A DNA stretch of 63,533 bases, the filler included, from Stramenopiles sp. TOSAG23-3 (Eukaryota): assembly GCA_900128585.1 (NCBI GenBank). It is 13 parts of 13 records of this genome, joined end to end, with 100 filler letters (N's around TTAATTAATTAA, not from the genome) between each part and the next. Parts side by side here need not be neighbours in the genome. Positions count along the whole stretch, not along the records: positions 19,634 to 24,436 come from LT643699.1; 12 more parts are not named here. One strand, given 5' to 3'. The translations under genes and the position numbers were made by a program. Below are positions 5,067 to 60,627 of this stretch, piece after piece. The notes beneath the pieces are model-generated. The model saw only the letters and a program-made list of their open reading frames with translations. It made no database searches and was not told the origin of the DNA. Numbering within the stretch: position 1 is the stretch's first letter; every line of letters starts with the position of its first letter.

Positions 5067-5303
5067 TGATATATAATGATCTCAAACCCACCTATAGTAT
5101 TGGCCCATACTACGGTAGCCGATTATCACCCCCGATGATTCCCATTAAAACGTTTCCCCTTTTCAATCATAGAAACAATTGAAACGAAATTAATTCCATT
5201 CCATACACCCTATTTACCACCCGAACAATAAAAATTATCGTACGAATTGCCTTGCATACCGTCTGACTCCATCCACAACACGACGATGGTGTAACAGCCC
5301 CCC

Positions 5304-6764
5304 ATGCCCACGCTCACCAACTCCCTCCTCGCGGTCCGGCCGTTGGGTCGATTCACCGTGGACGGCAACCCGGCGTACAAGCGTGCGCTGGAACGGGCAA
5401 AGGCGGCCGCGCAGTCGCACTCCAACACGGAAGACCACCAGTTTGAGAGTGCGGACGACTGGGTGTCGAAGCTCCAGCACCGCGTCCTTTCCCTGTACAG
5501 CAACCAGCAGAAGGCGTTCGAGCACCGGCGGCTCGTCCAGCGGCTGTTCCGGGCGTGCGAGCGGGGGCACGCGGACGACGCGCGGCAGATCCTCACCGAA
5601 GACGTCGACGCGATGCACGGGAAAGACATAGCCGGCCTGGCCACCCTGGTCATTGCCGCGATCAACGGGTCCGCGGACGTCATGCAGGTGCTCGTCGACT
5701 TTGGCGCCTTCATGGAGCACACGGACGAGCATGGCAACACGCCCTTCGTCCTTGCCAGCCACCAAGGGGGGTTCCGCATCTGCAGGATCCTGCACGCGGC
5801 CGGGTGCCACGTCGACGCGCAGAACGGGGTCCGCAAGGGCGCCCTGCACTACGCCGTCCTCGCGGGGCGGCTGCGGTACGCCGAGCTCCTCCTGAACGTC
5901 TGCAAGTGCTCCCCGTCGGTAACGGACGTTTTCGGGATGTCCCCCCTGCTCTGCGCCGTGGAGACGGGGAAGGAGGCCATCGTCCGGCTCCTCCTCAAGC
6001 ACGGCGCGTCGCCCGACGAGCGGAACGGCGCGAGCCTCACCTGCCTGATGATCTCCTCGATCAACCGGGAGCCCCGCATCGCCCAGGCGCTGATCGACCA
6101 CGGCGCTGGCGTCGACGCGCTCGACGGCCGGGGGGAGACGGTCCTGATGATGGCCGCCCAGCGCGGGCAGACCGAGTTCCTGGACATGCTCCTTCGGGCG
6201 GGCGCCAACAAAGACCTGACGACGCGCCAGGGGGAGACGGCGCTCGACCTCGCCGTGCTCCTTCGAAAGAAACGCGCCGAGCGCGTCCTTCGCGGTCGCC
6301 GCGCGAGCCAGGAGAGCACCGTCCCGGAGGTCCCCGACGTGGTCGTCCCCCCGACCCCGCGGTACCTTCGAAAGGGCACGGGGCACGTTCGACGGATCAT
6401 CCTCCCGAAGCTGAAGCGAAGGGCCGAGGAGGGGAAGGAGCGGGAAACGGAGAAAGAGACCAAGCTGGAGCGGGAGCGGCGGAGGGCCAGGGAGAAGCGG
6501 TTCAAGCGCGAGCGAAAGCGGGCGCAGACGGGGCTCAAGGTGTCCAGCTACGTGAGGCAGAGGAGGCGGGAGGCCGAGGAGGAGAACAAGAAGAAGGCAA
6601 AGGAGAGGCAGGAGGAGCGGGAGAGGCAGGAGGAGCGGGAGAGGATAGAGCGGGAGAGGATGGAGCGGGAGAAGAAGGAACGGAGGGGTCGGTGGAGGAA
6701 GTTCCTGGCCTGCCTGCAGGTGTGGAAGGGGGGGGGGGGGGGTCCGGGGTTGCCGATGAATTAA
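5304..6764 (+). CDS. Ankyrin-repeat protein with charged coiled-coil C-terminus
   Basis: About seven ANK motifs (GNTPFVLA, ALHYAV, GMSPLLCAVETG, GETVLMMAAQRG, GETALDLA) and an E/R/K-rich tail. The end is uncertain at the G15 run (6728-6742). Confidence 0.9.
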   Translation: MPTLTNSLLAVRPLGRFTVDGNPAYKRALERAKAAAQSHSNTEDHQFESADDWVSKLQHRVLSLYSNQQKAFEHRRLVQRLFRACERGHADDARQILTEDVDAMHGKDIAGLATLVIAAINGSADVMQVLVDFGAFMEHTDEHGNTPFVLASHQGGFRICRILHAAGCHVDAQNGVRKGALHYAVLAGRLRYAELLLNVCKCSPSVTDVFGMSPLLCAVETGKEAIVRLLLKHGASPDERNGASLTCLMISSINREPRIAQALIDHGAGVDALDGRGETVLMMAAQRGQTEFLDMLLRAGANKDLTTRQGETALDLAVLLRKKRAERVLRGRRASQESTVPEVPDVVVPPTPRYLRKGTGHVRRIILPKLKRRAEEGKERETEKETKLERERRRAREKRFKRERKRAQTGLKVSSYVRQRRREAEEENKKKAKERQEERERQEERERIERERMEREKKERRGRWRKFLACLQVWKGGGGGPGLPMN

Positions 6765-9428: not shown

Positions 9429-9570
9429 GGCGGTATCGTCCAGTGGTTAGGGTACGTAAAAAAAACACAGAATGATGACCTTTCAGTGTCTCTAACATAT
9501 TCTAAATATTCAATAACTCAGACGGCAGACTTTGAATCTGTAGACCCGGGTTCGAATCCCGGTACTGCCT
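9429..9570 (+). tRNA. tRNA-Gln(UUG) with a 70-nt intron in the D-arm (exon 1 9429-9451, exon 2 9522-9570)
   Basis: The spliced product folds fully: acceptor GGCGGTA/TACTGCC, D-stem GTCC/GGAC (formed only after intron removal), anticodon stem GCAGA/TCTGT with loop CT-TTG-AA, T-arm CCGGG-TTCGAAT-CCCGG, discriminator T. A and B boxes are intact. Confidence 0.93.
9452..9521 (+). other. Intron in tRNA-Gln with spliceosomal-type signals
   Basis: 5' GTACGT, branch-like CTAAC at 9492-9496, 3' CAG at 9519-9521. The boundary is ambiguous by 1 nt (alternative 9451-9520). Confidence 0.85.
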
Positions 9571-19292: not shown

Positions 19293-19764
19293 CCTGTTCC
19301 GGCAGTGGTTCGCCCCCACCACCGTCCGTTCAAATGCTTTAATTGGACTTGAGCTTATTAAATCAGGTATGATGCTGTAAATTCTTTATTAAAAAATTCA
19401 ATACAGTTTCCATTTCGTTCATGATCAAGAGATACAAATCATGATTGAAATATAAAATTGATATGTCGATGGCCTAACGATGGCCAGATGATAGTCGTCT
19501 ATATATAAATTAAATAAAAAAATAATAATAATTNNNNNNNNNNNNNNNNNNNNNNNNNNNNNNNNNNNNNNNNNNNNTTAATTAATTAANNNNNNNNNNN
19601 NNNNNNNNNNNNNNNNNNNNNNNNNNNNNNNNNTACCTGACCTGACGACAATCATAAAAATTTTTGGTGTCTTTTCAAAATCGATTCATTTTGTAACATT
19701 GTATCCTGTATATAATTTAGTCAAAACCTCGTGTAGACCTCTACAATATCATTAAAAATCATCA

Positions 19765-21961
19765 ATGTTGTTACGACATAGTGGATACAGACTACACCTT
19801 TCAGCATCAAGGTCTAGATTATCTTTACCGAGAAGTCGTTCTTTAAGTTATATTGTGTCTCCTCCTAGGTCAAATTTCCGTAAATTTGGTATATATGGAT
19901 TAGCAGCAGGATCAGCTGCTTTCGCGGCAGCAGTTGTGAGCAACCAAAATACTTTTAGTGATGATGCCCCTGTTGCAGGAACCTTTGGCTCGGGTGGAGC
20001 TCCTCCAGAAGGTACATTGAACCGAATCTTCTCCTTGGACGAGTTTCGCAACGCACCTGAAGGTCGCGTTTGGGTCAGTCTCAATGGTGGTGTTTATGAT
20101 GTCACTAACTTTATGGATGCTCATCCTGGTGGTGCTATGCGTATCATGATGGTTTCTGGTCAAGATTTGCATGCCTTTTGGCGGGTATATCACGAAATCC
20201 ATGACCGACCTCACATTCGTGAGTTACTCGAAGACTATAGGATTGGTAGTTTATCCCCTGAAGATGCCATCATTGTCAAAAATGAGTCTCAATTTGAAGA
20301 TGCATACAAGGATGATCCAGAAAGGCCAAAAGCAACAGAAATGCGCATACCATCAACGAAACCTTGGAATATGGAACCGCCACTTAGAGCTTTGGTGAAT
20401 GATTTTTTAACTCCAAATGACTTATTTTTTGTACGTAATCATAATCCTGTACCCAGCGTTGATATTGAAGATTATGTTTTAGAGATTGAAGCAAATGAAG
20501 ATGCAGGAACGAAAGAATTAAAACTAACTCTTGCAGATCTCAAGACTAAATTTCCCAGACATGAAGTCGTATCTGCTTTACAATGCGCTGGAAATCGACA
20601 AGAAGATTATGTCACCCCTGATCGCCCTTTATATGTCGCACCTCATTGGCGCGGTGGTGCAATTGGTTGTGCAAAATGGGTGGGTGTAAAAGTTCGAGAT
20701 ATATTTCGTGTTGCAGGTTTAGATGTAGATGGTATGTATGTTTTTATCACTTAATTTCAAATTTATTTTCTTTTGTACCAATTTTCGTACCTAACAAATT
20801 TCAAACGTACGACATATTTTTTCACAATATATGGCTTTAGGAAACGTTTCTCATTCTAAAGTGAAAATAGTAAATTTTATTGGAGAAGACCAGGATGAGA
20901 CTGGGACACCGTATGCTGGAGTAATACCTATTGAAAAAGTAGTAAATCCATTTGGTGATGCAATTCTTGTATGTTGTCCACTTAAAAAATTTCAAAGTTT
21001 TTACAAAGAAAATTTTTTACCTAACGATTTTTATTTTTTTAAATATTTTTCCACAATTTTTGCGTATGAGATGAATGATGAAACTCTACCACGTGATCAT
21101 GGATACCCTATTCGTCTCTTAGCTCCAGGACATGCTGGTTGTCGTAATGTGAAGTGGGTTTCTAGAATTATTTTGACTGAAGCTCCGTCAGAGTTGGACT
21201 CTGGATCAAAACTTGATCGTCATTTTGCACCAGATGTAACATTTAAAGGTCACATACGTGAAGGAGAAGATAAACTTCGACTCGATCAAGGTCCTGTAAT
21301 TCAAACTTTACCTGTCCAGTCTGTCATTTCAGAACCTCCTGATAGAGCTACTTTATCTGGTCAAATGGATAGTGTAACTGTAGAGGGTGTAGCTTGGTCT
21401 GGAGGTGGTCGTGGGATATGTCGTGTTGAAGTATCTATTGATGGAGGTGATTCTTATCAAGCTGCTGAGTTATTTAGTGGACCCATCGGAATACCAAGAA
21501 GTAAGAGAGAATTGGTTATTCAAAGACCAAATGATCGTGCCAAAAATCCAGACTCTGCTAATTGTGCTATGAGATCAAATCCTCAATCCGGCATGGGAAG
21601 TCACTGGGCATGGCAACAGTTTCAGCAAAAAATTGCTTTACCGGATCATGTAAAAGAAAAACTTCGAAATGGTGAAAAAGTTGAGTTGGAAATTGTAACA
21701 AATGCAATTGATGGTGATTTTAACTCTCAACCAGAAAAAATGACATCAACATGGAATGTTTTAGGTATTTGTTGTAATCATCAAGCAAGAGTAAAAGTAA
21801 CTTTAGACCCAGAAAAGAAATGTACTGAATGTGTTGATGCTCCAAAAATGCCAGCTGGTGGAAGTCATGTCTGGCCTGTTGAAAACCCAGGATTTACATA
21901 CCGTGTAGATGACAATGTTGCTTGTGGACCCGACGGGTTTCAATGTCCAGGGAGAGCATGA
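19765..21961 (+). CDS. SUOX: Animal-type sulfite oxidase (mitochondrial presequence, cytochrome b5, Moco and dimerisation domains) with two introns
   Basis: VYDVTNFMDAHPGG (b5), FFVRNH, LQCAGNR (Mo-ligand Cys), AYEMN..LPRDHGYPIR, GVAWSGGGRGI.RVEVS. AT-rich insertions at ~20736-20832 and 20969-21061. Confidence 0.92.
20736..20832 (+). other. SUOX intron 1 (alternative canonical boundaries 20732-20840)
   Basis: GTATGT donor, TACCTAAC at 20788-20795, in-frame stop, frame change between exons. Confidence 0.7.
20969..21061 (+). other. SUOX intron 2 (93 nt, apparent GT...TT ends)
   Basis: GTATGT donor and TACCTAAC at 21018-21025. Removal restores DAIL|AYEMN. Confidence 0.7.
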
Positions 21962-22033
21962 TTTTGTGTAGATGACAATGTTGTATGTGGATTCTAGTAT
22001 TTTTAAGAGATGGTTTTTTTTTGATGCATTTTA

Positions 22034-22090
22034 TATTGAGTCATTGTTACTGATGTATATAAAATTGAGTCATTGTTACTGATGTATATC
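22034..22090 (+). repeat. Tandem duplication of a ~29-bp unit (ATTGAGTCATTGTTACTGATGTATAT)
   Basis: Two adjacent copies. An 18-bp repeat GTGTAGATGACAATGTTG also flanks the SUOX stop (21903, 21966). Confidence 0.85.
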
Positions 22091-22208
22091 AAATACTTTT
22101 TATTTAATTTATTGTACTAAATCTTTGGAGATTTAATGATTTCATCTCTTATCATTTTGCTTTACAAATAGTGTTGTGCGCATTGTGACATTCCATAGCA
22201 TTTTTTTG

Positions 22209-24434
22209 TTACAAATATGTTTCATCCTCAGAAAAATCTTCTGCAACAAGAGGTAAATCATTTACAGAATCAGATATTTCTTCTTCAGAATTTACAGAAT
22301 CAGATATGTTTTCTTCAGAATTAGGTAACTCTTCTGTAATACCTTGTAAGTCTTGATCAAATGTATCCATAAGTTGCTGTACATTGACAGAGTCAGGTAA
22401 ATCTTCTCTAACAATTTCTTTCTCATCTGAAGAATCTTCCTCATCTGAAGGCTCATAGGAATACTTATTTTCATCGACAGAATCTTCCTCAATGGCAAAT
22501 TTTGATGGTGCAACTGACTGCAAATTATTTTCGTATGTAATTTTGTTATTTTCTAAACTTTGATTTGAGGAATCCCCTAACACTTGCCGTGCAACAGCCA
22601 CTTTTCTTCGCAGTTTTCTATGGTGAAAGCCCTCAAGCTTTTTCCTCACAGGTGGAATCATTGTAAACACAACAATTCCACCATATAGTAAACCACAACA
22701 GTGGGATCCTACCAGTACCTCATTCAGACCAGAAGAATCACTTGTCAACATGCCACTAGAAATCAACAAATTTGAGAAAAATACACCCATTGTGAGAAAA
22801 AGTAAAAGTGACTGAAGACTAAAATCGCCATTTCGTCGAAATGGTTTCACAATTAAGCAAAACATGAAGAAGAAAAATGATGTTGCTACAGATACACAAT
22901 TACGATACACGCCAGCCGGCCAGATTGTTAAAAATCCTGTCATAGCAGCTTTTCGGATCATTTCAACAAACTCATACCACCATACACCATGACGATAATT
23001 CAAATACAAATTTCCATACTGCTCCAAATATTTAAAGTGTGTTCTGTTGATTTCGTCATTTGTTGAGATAGCAGTATACATGTCGTCATCCATATCTTCT
23101 TGTGCCACAAGCCAGTCTCTTATATGATAAAAAAAGATGCACGATGAAGCTGGTATACCAACTACATAAAAAGCTATTCCAATTTTAGCAGTTATTGCCA
23201 TCATTTCGTATTGGTCTCCAGAACATTCAATACTAAGATCCGCATATAGATATCTAATTCCATTAATTTCAAGACAATTGAAAACATTGAAGCACTTCAT
23301 ACAAAGACCCGGATACATCACAAATAATATATTGCTCATTAAGTTTCGAGCATGCATCCTTGCGCTACTTTTTGTAAACTTTAATTTAAAGTGGCAGAAG
23401 TTCTTTATACAAATAGCATTTGCCAAGGCTATTCCAATAAGTAGTAAACATAATGGAAGGAGTATGATATGGGTGTAGAACTTGTACTCAAAATTGGAAG
23501 CAAAACTGCATGGACCTAGGTCTGGGGCAATTTGTGTGAAATCTAAATTTACAATGTCAAGTGATTCAGAGAAGTTTTCAAAATCTTCAGGCTGTGGTTC
23601 ACCTGAAGTATACTTCAATTGGGATGTCACTTGTAGAAAGCTAATGATGAGCTTTACTGTGGACTGCAATTCTCCCCACTTCTGTGCCTTGTCGGTTTTT
23701 GACATTTGTCCCTCATGAATGTGTCGTCGTTTTCGACGTTTCAACTTTTCTTCAATTGACACTTGAGTTTTGGGTTTGGTTTTCTTGTGCAAAACTGTCA
23801 TTAATTTTTTACGCCCCTTGTTTGTATCCGCCATCTTGTGAATTTTATTGTGAAGAAAGCTTTGCTTCTTAAATATATTTAAATCATGAGTGTGTCGTTC
23901 TTTCGATGATCCAATGGGGATTACTTTTGTCACTGATGTGCCTGCCTCAAATAGAGTAATCATTTTTGATAACTTCTTCAATCTTCTTCTAGCTTTCTTT
24001 CTCTTTTCTGCTAAGACATCGTCATAAACTACAGGATTTGCCTTCAATGTCATCAATAAGATAAATACAATGTAAAGAAGTATACATAAAACAATAAAAA
24101 GTATATTGGGTGTATTTGAATTGTCTCCACTATCTGTGCAGTTATTGCAAGTGAAACCAGACAATGCCCACTCTGCACCTAATTTACATCCATTCTTCCA
24201 CTTTTCTGTACACGAATCTTTGCAGACATTGTCAGTATCTTTACACTTGGCTAAACATAAATCATATTTCTTTTGGGAACAGCATAAAGCACATAGCGGG
24301 CCAGTATGCCCCTCACGACAATTTCTTCCATTTGGGTTTGGATGGGGCCTATCCACACCCCCAAGGCATAAAGCAGTAGCATATTTTGGAGGTACGTAGT
24401 CTCCACAATAATATGGTGAAAAGTTTTCTGGTTT
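22209..24434 (-). CDS. Multi-pass membrane protein of the protist Cys-rich + TRP-C-like family (5'-partial)
   Basis: CREGHTGPLCALC, KLIISFLQV, YLYADLSIEC, YGNLYLNYR...WYEFVEMIRK. Frame is open to the contig edge. Confidence 0.85.
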   Translation of the reverse strand, partial: KPENFSPYYCGDYVPPKYATALCLGGVDRPHPNPNGRNCREGHTGPLCALCCSQKKYDLCLAKCKDTDNVCKDSCTEKWKNGCKLGAEWALSGFTCNNCTDSGDNSNTPNILFIVLCILLYIVFILLMTLKANPVVYDDVLAEKRKKARRRLKKLSKMITLFEAGTSVTKVIPIGSSKERHTHDLNIFKKQSFLHNKIHKMADTNKGRKKLMTVLHKKTKPKTQVSIEEKLKRRKRRHIHEGQMSKTDKAQKWGELQSTVKLIISFLQVTSQLKYTSGEPQPEDFENFSESLDIVNLDFTQIAPDLGPCSFASNFEYKFYTHIILLPLCLLLIGIALANAICIKNFCHFKLKFTKSSARMHARNLMSNILFVMYPGLCMKCFNVFNCLEINGIRYLYADLSIECSGDQYEMMAITAKIGIAFYVVGIPASSCIFFYHIRDWLVAQEDMDDDMYTAISTNDEINRTHFKYLEQYGNLYLNYRHGVWWYEFVEMIRKAAMTGFLTIWPAGVYRNCVSVATSFFFFMFCLIVKPFRRNGDFSLQSLLLFLTMGVFFSNLLISSGMLTSDSSGLNEVLVGSHCCGLLYGGIVVFTMIPPVRKKLEGFHHRKLRRKVAVARQVLGDSSNQSLENNKITYENNLQSVAPSKFAIEEDSVDENKYSYEPSDEEDSSDEKEIVREDLPDSVNVQQLMDTFDQDLQGITEELPNSEENISDSVNSEEEISDSVNDLPLVAEDFSEDETYL

Positions 24435-24881
24435 ATNNNNNNNNNNNNNNNNNNNNNNNNNNNNNNNNNNNNNNNNNNNNTTAATTAATTAANNNNNNNN
24501 NNNNNNNNNNNNNNNNNNNNNNNNNNNNNNNNNNNNTTAAGACTCTCTCTTTTGTAATCAATCATTGGTTCCTTCGAAATCTAAAATTGTTGTTTGTATA
24601 AATTTATTACTTAAATAACAGCATAATTACATACTCTATATTAATTTGTTTCTTAAATAACAGCCAATTTTCTTGCTTTTTGGATATTAATTTTTTTCTT
24701 TTTCTTTCCGTTGTTTGACGAGTGTTATATTCCAGTGAACTTTTATAGAAATGATCTGTAGTAAACAAATCGATCCTTCAAACGTATTATGTATCGGTAT
24801 TACTGCGTGCCTTCGACAACTTACACCCTTCCTACTGCAACAAAATTTTCCTTTCCGGAGCTTCATGCCCAGCGCTTGCAA

Positions 24882-42882: not shown

Positions 42883-44163
42883 GAAGAAGGAAGAAAAAAA
42901 AAGTATCGTTCTAAGATAAGTCAAACAATTATCTGTTCGATTTATAAGAAATGACTAAATAGAGTGATTTAAATGAAACCTATTCATAGTTTCACTAGTT
43001 TCTTTAATTCAAAACTCTCTCATATTCAATTCTGGAATATCTATGTATAAAATCTGGAATAGAANNNNNNNNNNNNNNNNNNNNNNNNNNNNNNNNNNNN
43101 NNNNNNNNNNNNNNNNNNNNNNNNNNNNNNNNNNNNNNNNNNNNNNNNNNNNNNNNNNNNNNNNNNNNNNNNNNNNNNNNNNNNNNNNNNNNNNNNNNNN
43201 NNNNNNNNNNNNNNNNNNNNNNNNNGATCGATCGATGACGATGCAACTCAATTTAAGATGACGTCAAATTAAGGAATAAAAAGTATTTAAATATATTAAA
43301 TGTACTTATTTGTTCATAGTGTTGTGTTGTTCTATTCCTATGAAAACAAGGATAGAGAAACCATGAATTACAAATTAATTGAAGGAAAAAAAGGGGGGAG
43401 GCTTTGTTGGATTGAAGCGGTTCGATTCTCAATTGAATGAATAAGGATGAGTTCATTTCATATCTGAAGAGGAATTATGTATAGAATCAAGATAGGTAAA
43501 GAATATTCTGGATTTTCTTTTCGTATTGGGTTTATATTCCTTAGTTTTAATAGCCAAACAAACGATTTCGTTTGCCTTCTTTCGGGTGGATTTAGGTGAA
43601 TTTAGTAAAGCGGCGTATGGTATTTTCATGGTAAATAATGAATAGGTATTTAACACCGTCTTATTATGGAAGAAAATGAAAGAAATGAAAAATAGAAACA
43701 AAACAAAGAAGAAGAAGAAGAAGAAAGGAAGGAAGGAAGGAAACGATTTTAGATTGTGGTTTTTGGTTCGTTCGTTATAGATTAGTATGTTTTTCTTTGT
43801 TTATGAAGAATTAATAGAGACGTGTTGAAAGGCTTTACTTGTTTTAGGATACGTAGCAAGAAGTTGAAAGTTGCGATTGTAATTCGTTTAGGCAATTTTG
43901 TACTTAAGACTGTTCGTACGATGGCGTCTAGGGTAGTGTTTGGTATTGTTTGTCTGTTCGTCTTGTGTGGAAATGTACTTGGGGAAGGAGAAAGGAGGCT
44001 GTTTACGGGCCGGNNNNNNNNNNNNNNNNNNNNNNNNNNNNNNNNNNNNNNNNNNNNTTAATTAATTAANNNNNNNNNNNNNNNNNNNNNNNNNNNNNNN
44101 NNNNNNNNNNNNNACGCCACAAAGACAAAACAAAAACCTCAACCCCCAAGCCGTAAACGAAAA

Positions 44164-47667: not shown

Positions 47668-47990
47668 AATTTCTGAAACATTTTGAGTTCCAATTTTTGA
47701 GGAAGGATTGGAGACATTTCCTAAGAATACTCGCTATTTAAATCAGCCAGCCTTTAAACTGCTAATATTTTATCATAGCTACCAGACGAGATGGTACGAA
47801 GTTTTGAAGATTATGATTGGNNNNNNNNNNNNNNNNNNNNNNNNNNNNNNNNNNNNNNNNNNNNNNNNNNNNNNNNNNNNNNNNNNNNNNNNNNNNNNNN
47901 NNNNNNAGTCTTAAAACATCATTAATAGTTTTTTTTTATCATAGCTGTATCATATGATGATATAAATAATATTTTCAGATTTTCATTACT

Positions 47991-49070: not shown

Positions 49071-49809
49071 TGACTCTTCTCTTCTCTTCGCTTGTATTGC
49101 ATTGGTTTTCTGTTTGTCTTCTTTGGTGTCCTTCCTATCAATGGGGTGGTTTTAAGTACATGTTTTTTTTCGATTTTGGTATAGTAAAATCAACAGGGAT
49201 ACAAAAGGGGCATCCTCGAACTGCGTCGGACGGTATAGTACACTACACAGCAGGGACTTAATTCCCCACCAGTCAATTTTTTCATGTCAAAAAGTATATA
49301 AACCCTGTTTGTATTGTTAAATTAACAAAAGTATCTTTAATAAACATAATGATAGGTAAATATACCAAAATATGTAATATACTGTTTCTATATTATTTTA
49401 CATTCTTTCATGATTACATAGGTATATATTCTTAATATTTTCTACAAGTACAATGAAGTACTTTTTTCTTTTTCTCTCTATCCATTCATTTTAGCTTTGC
49501 CTTCTTTTCTTCTTCTTCTTCTTCTTCTTCTTCTTCTTCTTCTTCTTCTTCTTCTTCTTCTTCTCTTCTTCTCATTTCTTTCTTTCTTTCTTCTTCTCTT
49601 CTTTCATTTTAATTATTTATCAAAAGGAAAGAATAGATAGTAGATGACAGATAGTACATTTGCAATCTATCCTTTACTACCAATCTATCCATCTACTTTC
49701 AACACAACGGTTGAGAAAGAAAAGATTCTTACAGTTGGAGGACAGAAAACGTATTTAGATATATAATCCATTTATATTTTTAAACAACACCAATACACAA
49801 ATATTCAAC

Positions 49810-50583
49810 ATGCCAAAACGTTCCTCCAAGAAGAAGACCAGCACGAAAAAGTCGGTGCCCAAGGAAGACCCCCTTTACGCCAAGAATGCCCGTTCGTTCC
49901 GTATCGGTGGGGATGTCCCAAACCACAAGCGTGACCTGTCCCGCTTCGTTAAATGGCCAAAGTACATCCGCCTTCAGCGCCAAAAGAAGGTATTGATGGA
50001 CCGTCTTAAGACCCCACCATCCTTGAACCAGTTCAACGACGCTTTGGACAAGAACCAAGCCACCGAACTCTTCAAGCTTTTGAACAAGTACCGCCCAGAG
50101 ACCAAGAAAGAGAAGAAGGAACGCCTCAAGAAGCAAGCCGCCGCCGAGGCCGGCAAGGCCGGTGCCGGTGTCAGCGCCAAGCCGCCACCAACCCTTAAGT
50201 TCGGTTTGAACCACATCACCCATCTCATCGAGAAGAAGAAGGCCAAGTTGGTGTGCATCGCCAGCGACGTTCAGCCAATCGAACTTGTAGTATGGCTTCC
50301 AGCCCTGTGCAAGTCCATGGGCGTCCCCTACTGCATCGTTAAGAACAAGTCCCGATTGGGATCCTTGGTCAACCAGAAGAACGCCACCGCCGTTGCCCTG
50401 ACCGCCGTTAACGGTGGCGACAACGGTGCCCTTGACACCATGACCTCCCTGTGCAAAGCCAAGTACAACGATGGCCCAGAACCGAAATGGGGCGACCGCA
50501 CCCTGGGCTTGAAGACCCAGCGTGCCGTTGCCAAGCGTGAGGCCGAGTTAGCCGCCGAAGCCGCCAAACGTGCCAAGTACTAA
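49810..50583 (+). CDS. RPL7A: 60S ribosomal protein L7a (eL8), intronless
   Basis: RDLSRFVKWPKYIRLQRQK...PPSLNQF, GLNHITHLIEKKKAKLV.IA.DV.PIELVVWLPALC. Strong codon bias. Confidence 0.98.
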   Translation: MPKRSSKKKTSTKKSVPKEDPLYAKNARSFRIGGDVPNHKRDLSRFVKWPKYIRLQRQKKVLMDRLKTPPSLNQFNDALDKNQATELFKLLNKYRPETKKEKKERLKKQAAAEAGKAGAGVSAKPPPTLKFGLNHITHLIEKKKAKLVCIASDVQPIELVVWLPALCKSMGVPYCIVKNKSRLGSLVNQKNATAVALTAVNGGDNGALDTMTSLCKAKYNDGPEPKWGDRTLGLKTQRAVAKREAELAAEAAKRAKY

Positions 50584-58374: not shown

Positions 58375-58760
58375 TATAATATAAAGTAGACGACCGCGTG
58401 ATAAAGTATTAATGGCTTTTTTTCTCTTTCCTTTTCTTTTGGTTCCTTTTGATTCTCTTGGTTCTCTTTTTCTTTCTTTTCTAAACAATACTTTCCATAC
58501 CATAGTTCCAAGATCTAACTATCTCCATAATCAATTTTTGATATAGAAAGGTTAATTTATTCAATCAAGTGGTGGGTGTCATCTGCTGTGATGATGTAAT
58601 ACATGGTATGCATTGTATTCTATGCTGTGATTATGTATACTTCGTATAGTTCTTTCGTTTNNNNNNNNNNNNNNNNNNNNNNNNNNNNNNNNNNNNNNNN
58701 NNNNTTAATTAATTAANNNNNNNNNNNNNNNNNNNNNNNNNNNNNNNNNNNNNNNNNNNN

Positions 58761-60627
58761 TCAAAGGAAGAAGAAGACGATCTCCGGGTAAAGTTGAGCG
58801 CTTTGGACATTGAGGCGATCTTTGAGAGCGGGCGAAACCTGTCGATGATAACATTTAGTGACATTGTGTACCGCCATTTAACAGACGGGGAAATAGCGCA
58901 TATTTTTCAGGTCATTGATACCGACGAAAGTGGGTGTATTTCCAAGACCGAGCTGTTGGACTACATAACTGACGATGGGGACATGGACATTGACACGATC
59001 CAGGACAAACACGACGATTTATGCGACAAGCAAGACAATACTGTCGAATCTATGGAGACCATGGGCACGGCGCTTATGAAGGTAAAGATTATGCTCAGTT
59101 ACATGCAGTGCATGACCTTTCTCCCGGTCGTGTTTGAGCTGCCGTTTCCGCCTGTCCTAGAAACAATGTTGGCGCTGCTCGAAATATCTTCGCTGGACAT
59201 TTACGTCTTTTTCGGTGAACTGTCGTGCCACATGCAAACCACGTTTGAACAAAAGTTTGTCTTTCACATGCTGCTCCTTCCAGTAATATGTGTCTGCACG
59301 GGATTAGTATGGAAAGTTGTCATGTTCCGTAAAGCGCACTGCAAAAAGTTTCCGGCGCTTTTTACTCAAGAGAGCATGCGGTCGCGACTGAACGGTTTCG
59401 GCTCGATCCTTTCGTTTGGGGTGTACGCGGGACTGTCGACAAAGATCTTTCGTTTGTTCAAGTGCCGTCAGATTGGCCAGCACTTCTACTTGATGGCCGA
59501 CTACAGCCTAATGTGTTACGAAGGTCGCTGGTGGAATTACGGCGGTGTGGCCATTGCCGGCATGCTCTTGTATGTTGTCGGCATTCCAATCGTACAGTTC
59601 ATCATCCTTTGGAAGCACCGTGCACACCTGTACGAGGACTCGTCCCTCGACGATAAGGCCCATCGGCAGGTGAAGAAACAGTACGGCTCGCTGTACCTTC
59701 ATTTCAGAGAGGATTGCTACTACTACGAACTGGTAAATATGTTTCGCAAACTGATGCTGACGGGGGGGGTTGATCTTGGTCGGAGAACATTCTACGGTCC
59801 AGGGGCTGCTGGGAATACTTGTCTGTGCCTTCTGGCTGCTTCTGGTGGCCGTTAAGTTTCCATACGCCGTATACTGGGACAACATGCTTGAAATTGCGCT
59901 CTCCTTCGGGCTCATGATGACGTTGCTTAGCGGACTCGCGCTGGAAATGTTTCGATTGCAGGAATTCGATGGCAACGAGCAGATTGTGTTTGACGTCCTG
60001 CTTGTATTAATGCTTTTGTTTGGCCTTTTCGCGGGGTGTTTCGCGCTGGCAACGACGCTCCCATTTTGCCGGCCATACGCTGCCAAACTCTTGTTTTGGA
60101 ACACAAAAGGGACCGCACGAAGGTTCTTGAACGGGTGGGTCAAGAAGAACTTGATCTTTGCAAAATGGTTGTCGGTGGAAGAGCTGAAGAGGATGCTGCG
60201 GTCTACTGAAGGAACGTTAAAGAAGATGGCCAAAGAGAAAGCGGAAAACACCCACAAAGAGCGGCGTTTGTCCAGGAAAATCTACCCCTCCAGAAAGGAC
60301 ACGGTATCGCTCGATATCATGATTCGAACAAAACGATTGGTAAGGCGGCGGACAAAAATTCTTAGGGTGAGAAAAGCCCTTCTCCCCGCAGCCCGAAAAC
60401 GCGCCAAACCGTCGCTAAAATCGTATACGAGTATGTTGAGATCGCACATCGCGTCCAGGCGCAACCAGCGGAAGCTTCATAAAGAGGAAGTCGACAGGAT
60501 TCACGAAGATCGAAGCAGCAAAATGATTCACCTGAGAAAAAAGCAAGAGGAAGTCTTGCGGACAAAGGAGCAGAAAAGGCTACTCTTGGAGAAACGGATC
60601 GAATCGAGAAACAAAGCGAAGAAGTAA
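58761..60627 (+). CDS. EF-hand + TRP-C-like multi-pass membrane protein (5'-partial), with a +1 frameshift at G8 (59762-59769)
   Basis: DTDESGCISKTE EF-hand, KIMLSYMQ, YLMADYSLMC, YGSLY...YYELVNMFRK. Deleting one G joins the two ORFs as LMLTGGLILVG. Confidence 0.8.

Follow-up and report, generated by a model that had tools for sequence, protein, structure and literature searches.

Introduction

The AG at the 3' end of a U2-type intron is among the most constant signals in eukaryotic genes, to which few well-documented exceptions are known (larvacean tunicates, Amoebophrya, euglenids and, in human, rare TG sites). Here I examine two inserts in a sulfite oxidase gene of Stramenopiles sp. TOSAG23-3 (assembly GCA_900128585.1), encoded on the plus strand at positions 19765-21961 of a 63,533-nucleotide (nt) stretch made of joined parts of that genome (hereafter the window). 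An earlier note on this DNA, made from the sequence alone, had described them as related introns that appear to end without AG. The two inserts are related to each other and, on balance, I consider that they are probably spliced out at non-AG 3' ends.

According to the cited part of Szafranski et al. (2007, PMC2374985), human TG acceptors function only next to an AG that lies within 28 nt, and the authors propose there that the AG defines the intron at step I whereas the other site is chosen at step II. The inserts resemble these TG/AG tandem acceptors in that a U2-type intron, ordinary in other respects, would have a non-AG end and an AG nearby, here 8-9 nt downstream. However, the human sites, as the cited part of that paper presents them, are TG, are always minor alternatives and are never the sole acceptor. 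The ends proposed here are AT or TT, and the non-AG form is the only one in the mRNA contigs.

A second comparison is with Fritillaria borealis, like the present organism a member of the marine plankton, in which the U2 spliceosome handles non-AG 3' ends, AU among them (cited part of PMC13326754). In that account, fewer than 10% of the introns of Fritillaria keep GT/AG, its donors are non-canonical too and its U2AF subunits are duplicated, whereas the present locus has canonical donors and a canonical branch motif, and the known cases number only two. A third is with Amoebophrya, also a marine protist, in which related repeated introns have direct repeats of 3-5 nt over the exon/intron borders (here 4 and 3 nt). 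As far as the cited part of PMC7789003 goes, the elements of Amoebophrya differ in two respects: inverted repeats of 8-20 nt pair their ends, which sets them apart as a type from the present inserts, where I found no terminal inverted repeats, and they share no dinucleotide signature at either end, whereas the donor here is standard. Because the ends of the inserts do not pair, the hairpin model put forward for Amoebophrya does not apply to them.

Irimia and Roy are said to have described, in 2008, a strict 3' intron architecture in intron-poor eukaryotes, whose introns still end in AG. The present locus is similar in its nearly intron-free surroundings, its extended GTATGTT donor, its identical branch motif in both inserts and the fixed distance of 36-37 nt from that motif to the cut, but unlike those introns the two described here would not end in AG.

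A literature search, limited to main texts (supplementary intron tables may exist), returned no report of non-AG introns in marine stramenopiles (MAST) or other stramenopiles. Non-AG 3' ends as such are already known, from the cited parts of the work on Fritillaria (PMC13326754) and Amoebophrya (PMC7789003) and from the minor human TG sites. What would be new here, if real, is that canonical donor and branch signals go together with a non-AG end while an AG close by is left unused, and this in a stramenopile-like protist poor in introns.

Position of the proposed cuts in the sulfite oxidase gene

The product of the gene is a sulfite oxidase, with a cytochrome b5 domain at its N-terminus. Chicken sulfite oxidase (1sox) is matched by exon 1 (E 3.9e-54) and by exons 2-3 (E 1.1e-30), and the domain order is PF00173, PF00174, PF03404 (cytochrome b5, molybdenum cofactor or Moco, and dimerisation), as read from the Pfam domains precomputed for the hits, including the cluster of a public gene model (P0250) discussed below. 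Enzyme activity is a prediction, and in the alignment the counterpart of chicken Tyr322 is Asp.

Exon 1 (19765-20735, its end ambiguous within 20732-20736) holds the cytochrome b5 domain and the first part of the Moco domain; it is covered by the open reading frame (ORF) 19756-20754, matches 1sox, and in homologues continues as ...GLDVDGMALG. The gene has a single frame break, a TAA at 20752, and downstream of it a 31-codon stretch that is absent from every relative compared. Exon 2 (20833-20968; MALGNVSH...GDAIL) is placed by homology, with an RNA contig of run X3 covering 20893-20966, and exon 3 (21062-21961; AYEMNDETLPRDHGYP... up to the stop codon) is covered by the same contig, which is unbroken over 21060-21995.

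When the translation of 20843-21958, with intron 2 read through, was aligned with 61 homologues, none of the 61 had a residue in any of the 31 columns of the insert. The motif [AV][YFM][EKD]MN[GDH] follows immediately after ...IL/LL in all 61, as LAYEMN would after the 93-nt cut proposed in the earlier note. The four residues preceding the NVSH position are IALG in 14 of the 61, MALG in nine and MSLG in eight, and most of the others are similar. The closest relative, P0002 (82% identical), reads DVDGMALGNVSH / GLDVDGMALGNVSH and GDAILAYEMNG, passing through both intron positions. Since the homologues lack the 31-residue insert and conserve the residues that correspond to MALG (20831-20842) and AYE (21062-21070), the mature message should lack 97 nt at the first position and 93 nt at the second.

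For intron 1, only the removal of 97 nt gives DVDG-MALG-NVSH as in P0002 and others. With the obvious donor this would be 20736-20832 (GT..AT, plus strand), and the equivalent cuts on the same strand are 20733-20829 (TA..TA), 20734-20830 (AT..AT), 20735-20831 (TG..TA) and 20737-20833 (TA..TG). The earlier note had claimed that a 97-nt cut restores DG-MALG; this holds for 20736-20832 and its equivalents but not for 20732-20828, which gives DD-MALG. Intron 2, with the obvious donor, would be 20969-21061 (93 nt, GT..TT, plus strand), which is in frame and free of stops, with 20967-21059 (TT..TT), 20968-21060 (TG..TT) and 20970-21062 (TA..TG) as equivalents on that strand. The cuts can slide in this way because of short direct repeats at the borders, TATG/TATG in intron 1 and TTG/TTG in intron 2, much as the earlier note had seen them. 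None of the five cuts of intron 1 and none of the four of intron 2 ends in AG, and there is no GT-AG, GC-AG or AT-AC pair among them. Judged from the aligned proteins, only non-AG cuts restore the conserved protein, as GT..AT and GT..TT if the obvious donor is used.

The nearest AGs downstream do not help. The first AG past the candidate branch motif of intron 1 (20839-20840, plus strand) lies inside the conserved L-G codons and, paired with the GT at 20732, would remove 109 nt and with them MALG. Its counterpart in intron 2 (21069-21070, plus strand) lies inside the GAG codon of the conserved A-Y-E, so that its use would delete AYE, as the earlier note had said; the mRNA contigs do not use it. 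Both AGs stand 45 nt from the branch motif and 8-9 nt beyond the proposed cut. Two further arrangements were tried and rejected: nested or recursive canonical splicing, because the sole AGs within intron 2 lie upstream of its branch motif, and a GT..TG cut, which would take out 94 nt against 93 in the RNA.

Anatomy and likeness of the two inserts

Both introns open as a U2-type intron is expected to, with GTATGTT at 20736 and 20969, and a register that begins with GT is allowed in each. GTATGT occurs at 20732 and 20736, and GTATGTT at 20969. Each insert also contains TACCTAAC, which by its motif (yUnAy, or TACTAAC-like) is a candidate branch site: at 20788-20795 (plus strand) in intron 1, 37 nt before the proposed 3' cut, and at 21018-21025 (plus strand) in intron 2, 36 nt before it. 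A U12-type intron has a 5' RTATCCTT box and a branch site TCCTTAAC 10-20 nt from its 3' end. That class was considered and set aside, the 5' ends being GTATGTT and TACCTAAC lying 36-37 nt from the cut.

Towards the 3' end the two inserts share a block of 19 nt up to the cut (family D3), ATATTTTTTCACAATATAT at 20814-20832 in intron 1 and ATATTTTTCCACAATTTTT at 21043-21061 in intron 2, both on the plus strand. Taken one letter further, ATATTTTTTCACAATATATG (20814-20833) and ATATTTTTCCACAATTTTTG (21043-21062) are 85% identical. Both introns stop exactly 4 nt past CACAAT, and the exon that follows opens with G. The inserts further have CACTTAA, ATTTCAAA and ATATTTTTYCACAAT in common, whereas the segment between branch motif and 3' block shows low likeness in the alignment. 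Both inserts are AT-rich: over 100 nt starting with the GTATGT of 20732 and with that of 20969, A and T together make up 77 and 79 letters respectively.

Aligned over 101 columns, 20736-20832 and 20969-21061 are identical at 67 of 89 aligned pairs (about 75%). The alignment score is 57, against 20.7 +/- 9.5 for dinucleotide shuffles, only one of 2000 of which reaches 57, and the best scores of AT-rich control windows from the same 63.5 kb (n=909) are 31 and 38. The pattern TACCTAAC-N12-24-ATATTTTTYCACAAT occurs twice in the window and in none of 100 shuffles. Since the likeness exceeds both shuffles and controls, the earlier observation of related introns with shared, ordered blocks stands.

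A separate observation is that neither intron meets a stop when translated in frame 0 from its GT, and that the two peptides are alike (VCFYHLISNLF... for intron 1, VCCPLKKFQSF... for intron 2); for intron 1 this frame differs from the one entered out of exon 1. The similarity may reflect shared ancestry, or simply a chance likeness between T-rich sequences.

RNA evidence

Twenty runs were found to hold part of the gene, and four of these (X1-X4) were aligned to the N-free stretch 19634-24436. X3 and X4 are polyA metatranscriptome runs from two different studies. In each run, a single contig connects 20966 directly with 21060 and so leaves out 93 nt, with 3 nt that fit either side. The shorter side of the joint measures 74 nt in the X3 contig and 27 nt in the X4 contig. 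No joint corresponding to the 102-nt skip to the AG at 21070 is listed among the X3 and X4 contigs. For intron 2, the junction check that the earlier note had called for therefore came out as predicted: the contigs lack exactly the expected 93 nt, and the AG at 21070 is unused. The relaxed, non-AG 3' splice site proposed there is supported by mRNA contigs for intron 2; for intron 1, where no contig spans the junction, homology points to it.

These contigs bear directly on the idea that intron 2 is retained in the window's strain and translated as a 31-residue insert (VCCPLKKFQSFYKENFLPNDFYFFKYFSTIF), which I consider highly improbable. Intron 2 is indeed a multiple of three without an in-frame stop, which 1557 of 20000 shuffles (7.8%) match, and the named public model P0250 does translate its last 21 codons. 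Yet mRNA contigs lack it, no homologue among the 61 has any residue there, and it starts with GTATGTT and holds TACCTAAC as does intron 1, through which reading is impossible because the TAA at 20752 stops the frame. An AlphaFold2 model that includes the insert (mean predicted local distance difference test score, pLDDT, 66) gives the insert low confidence, with block means of 54, 49, 35 and 46 over residues 41-80; this speaks weakly against retention and is too weak to decide it.

The contigs of X1 (20433-21214) and X2 (20628-21030 and 21035-21396) cover the introns with 0 differences from the window. This bears out the DNA reading at the cuts, although the two runs and the assembly may not be independent. 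Coverage is even across genes, spacers and both introns, so that these contigs look like DNA present in an RNA library. The earlier note had named a consensus error that hides an AG as something that would overturn its reading, and I looked for one. I found no point in favour of such an error, which is barely credible: beyond the exact agreement of X1 and X2 over the introns, with the proviso just given, an AG at the cut would require two changed letters in each intron, and the start of intron 1 is the same in P0242, a protein encoded on a Logan contig of 2552 nt.

Several observations weigh against splicing at non-AG ends. The tool used to align the contigs demands 31 letters on both sides of a joint, a rule that the X3 contig passes and the X4 contig, with 27, does not. 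Intron 1 is bridged by no RNA contig (the gap is 20724-20893 in X3 and 20684-20940 in X4), and its junction is placed by homology. The X3 contig differs from the window by 4 letters in about 1010 and the X4 contig by 7 in about 980, whereas X1 and X2, identical to the window, hold both introns and show no joint. The canonical alternatives 20732-20840 and 20969-21070 are both in frame, as the earlier note had itself cautioned along with the equal 45-nt spacing and the stop-free intron 2. In-frame AG options and a stop-free intron 2 of 3n length would be expected under selection on an insert that is canonically spliced or retained. To bypass an AG 9 nt downstream would be unusual behaviour for a spliceosome. 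Finally, the sample is small: two introns and one solid mRNA contig.

Some of these points converge on a presence/absence polymorphism, in which intron 2 (and perhaps intron 1 as well) would have been inserted recently and the spliced contigs would derive from strains, or a second copy of the gene, without it. Alleles bearing the insert would then be spliced at the downstream AGs, at the cost of MALG and AYE, or would fail to splice and decay. The letter differences do imply that the spliced contigs derive from another strain, possibly one without intron 2 in its DNA, and the runs identical to the window show the unspliced form only. Both AG alternatives are in frame, and intron 2 is of 3n length and stop-free. 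The border repeats of 3-4 nt resemble target-site duplications or microhomology, and P0002, at 82% identity, is uninterrupted at both positions. Furthermore, a vertebrate homologue is gapped over the MALG loop, so its loss might be tolerated.

Against this, the polymorphism, if non-AG splicing plays no part, needs two separate, recent insertions that are only about 75% alike, in the same orientation and 136 nt apart, in one gene, with no other copy in 63.5 kb. A marker allele provides a second objection. Compared with exon 1 of the window, P0242 has V269I as its sole difference, a G>A change at 20569 that X3 and X4 share and X1 and X2 lack, and it ends ...DVDGMYVFIT, that is, it reads into intron 1. 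Because P0242 carries the X3/X4 allele yet enters intron 1, this intron is present in both strain groups. P0001, a 296-residue call on a contig equally of 2552 nt, starts at MNDETLP; this start fits an AT-rich insert just upstream, so intron 2 is probably also on P0242's contig, if the gene caller behaved as it seems to have done. AYE is kept in all 61 homologues, and seven of the nine coding differences between the window and X3/X4 are synonymous, from which the gene is judged to be under purifying selection. Because MALG is intact and most strain differences are synonymous, intron 1 is most simply a correctly removed intron. In addition, the conserved 3' block stops exactly at the proposed cut in both introns. 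I therefore rate the polymorphism as unlikely, while giving it more weight than any other alternative considered here.

A possible splicing route

Splicing at non-AG ends thus remains the reading I favour, and because the donor and the branch motif are standard, the U2-type spliceosome is its natural agent. Two related, lineage-specific introns of spliceosomal type would each be recognised by a strong GTATGTT donor and the branch motif TACCTAAC. Exon ligation would take place about 37 nt past this motif, after ...CACAATATAT in intron 1 or ...CACAATTTTT in intron 2, so that the introns would end in AT or TT and the next exon would start with G. The register would be GT..NT rather than TA..TG, and intron 1 would behave as intron 2 does. 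Ligation would not occur at the AG 8-9 nt downstream, within conserved codons; if the human TG/AG tandem acceptors are a guide, this AG may do no more than define the intron ahead of the first catalytic step. The two-step logic would be that of the human TG sites, with the difference that the non-AG site would be the main or only ligation site.

A stronger version, that an uncultured marine stramenopile constitutively ligates exons at non-AG sites despite a canonical donor and branch site, is tentative. Equally tentative, as part of the same proposal, is that the cut is set by the branch distance of about 37 nt, by CACAAT-N4 or by both, with the exonic AG serving only to define the intron. If true, intron definition and the choice of ligation site would be separable as two steps, and if true across the genome, gene models of this lineage made with GT-AG-only tools would be systematically wrong at such introns.

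The inserts might instead be removed by a route that does not involve the spliceosome, either precise DNA elimination, as with the internal eliminated sequences of ciliates, or another form of RNA processing. Their ends are not GT-AG, short direct repeats stand beside both, and intron 1 allows borders at TA (20733-20829, with a further TA directly after it). However, intron 2 has no TA..TA option and so departs from the TA-bounded ciliate pattern, and both inserts have a textbook donor, the same branch motif and the same distance from it to the cut. The best named relatives of a neighbouring gene are stramenopiles, not ciliates, and the ORFs are read in the standard code. Pairing between the ends is no better than in shuffles (fold z-scores 0.99 and 0.03); with no terminal inverted repeats in either insert, the end-pairing or hairpin model was rejected. 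Together these points make removal outside the spliceosome very improbable.

A public gene model

The only named public model that I found for this gene is P0250, EukProt GSMAST32.ASY1.ANO1.1149.1, of 612 residues, which matches the gene exactly in six pieces over 19765-21958 and whose source name hints at a MAST-3-type stramenopile. This model uses the GT-AG pair 20732-20840, so that MALG is lost, then jumps from 20911 to 20999 (20912-20998 skipped) and continues into the last part of intron 2. It has three more gaps in conserved coding sequence, at 21248-21268 (21 nt), 21470-21574 (105 nt) and 21650-21685 (36 nt), all of them contradicted by the unbroken X3 contig. P0250 forces introns of GT-AG style on the gene, and the RNA contradicts it. 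As it deletes conserved residues and translates intron, the proteomes of uncultured plankton may contain hidden errors.

Further copies and gene context

Introners occur as many near-identical copies in unrelated genes and are spliced at canonical sites. The present inserts are like them in being similar in sequence, in their lineage-specific positions and in short border repeats that are possibly target-site duplications; unlike them, they would have non-AG ends. The earlier note had gone as far as to propose a recently spread intron family. This part of its reading is not shown: only the two copies, both in the sulfite oxidase gene, were found in the 63.5-kb window. One scan of JGI metagenome contigs for the 3' pattern gave a single match, in an unrelated AT-rich contig (L001) with no GTATGT upstream, and one scan of IMG/VR for the 5' pattern gave another (L002), within coding sequence that shows neither a branch motif nor the 3' block; both read as chance-like. 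With two copies about 75% alike in one gene, and no further copy found in the window or in these two scans, the introner label is not earned on this evidence.

Other introns are equally scarce. The window is gene-dense and almost intron-free, with 27 long ORFs, and the gene for ribosomal protein eL8 is a single ORF. Searching for GTAWGT sites, and the 27 ORFs for AT-rich islands, gave no other segment with an AT fraction of 0.80 or more. Candidate GT..AG introns at 33125 (plus strand), 45462 (minus) and 43785 (plus) all lie in non-coding DNA, and I found no verified AG-ending intron within the window that could serve as a control.

Between divergent genes, the spacer contains two copies of a segment of some 35-40 nt, at about 33186-33221 and 33641-33680. 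Its plus strand resembles a branch site with an acceptor (ACAATTTTACTAA(A)ACATACAG, then ATGATTGTTGATTA), and its minus strand a donor (GTATGTT(T)TAGTAAAATTGT). The first copy holds CCACAATTTT, a 10-mer identical to part of the 3' block of intron 2.

A neighbouring MTHFR gene has stramenopiles as its best named relatives, at about 50% identity; its other relatives are an unnamed ENA protein that is 99% identical and JGI/ENA proteins at 66%. An outlier chromosome of a green alga (Mamiellales), considered as the origin of this DNA, was rejected in view of the stramenopile relatives and the source name GSMAST32. Neighbouring genes contrast strongly in codon composition, 19756-24488 standing apart from the rest of the window. 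The G+C content at third codon positions (GC3) is 0.18-0.26 in the sulfite oxidase exons and 0.30 in the next gene (22212-24488, minus strand), against 0.38 to 0.92 in the other genes of the window, among them 5295-6761 at 0.92 and MTHFR at 0.77. One contig of run X1 extends from a point upstream of 19634 as far as 19753; a simple chimera in the assembly is therefore no obvious explanation.

A few minor features of the window may be recorded. A run of eight G (59762-59769) lies where ORF 58713-59852 (frame 0) overlaps ORF 59761-60624 (frame 1), an arrangement that resembles one gene with either a one-base homopolymer error or a real frameshift. Between 4812 and 58760, paired runs of 44 N, 12 bases apart, recur about every 4.9 kb, with longer runs at 43065-43225 and 47821-47906; they resemble masked positions more than gaps in a scaffold. 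The intron-less eL8 gene, whose start codon is near 49810, is preceded at about 240 nt by a long (CTT)n microsatellite (49497-49570). The only Rfam hit in the window is a weak transfer RNA match at 9506-9563 on the plus strand (RF00005, 30.5 bits against a gathering score of 29).

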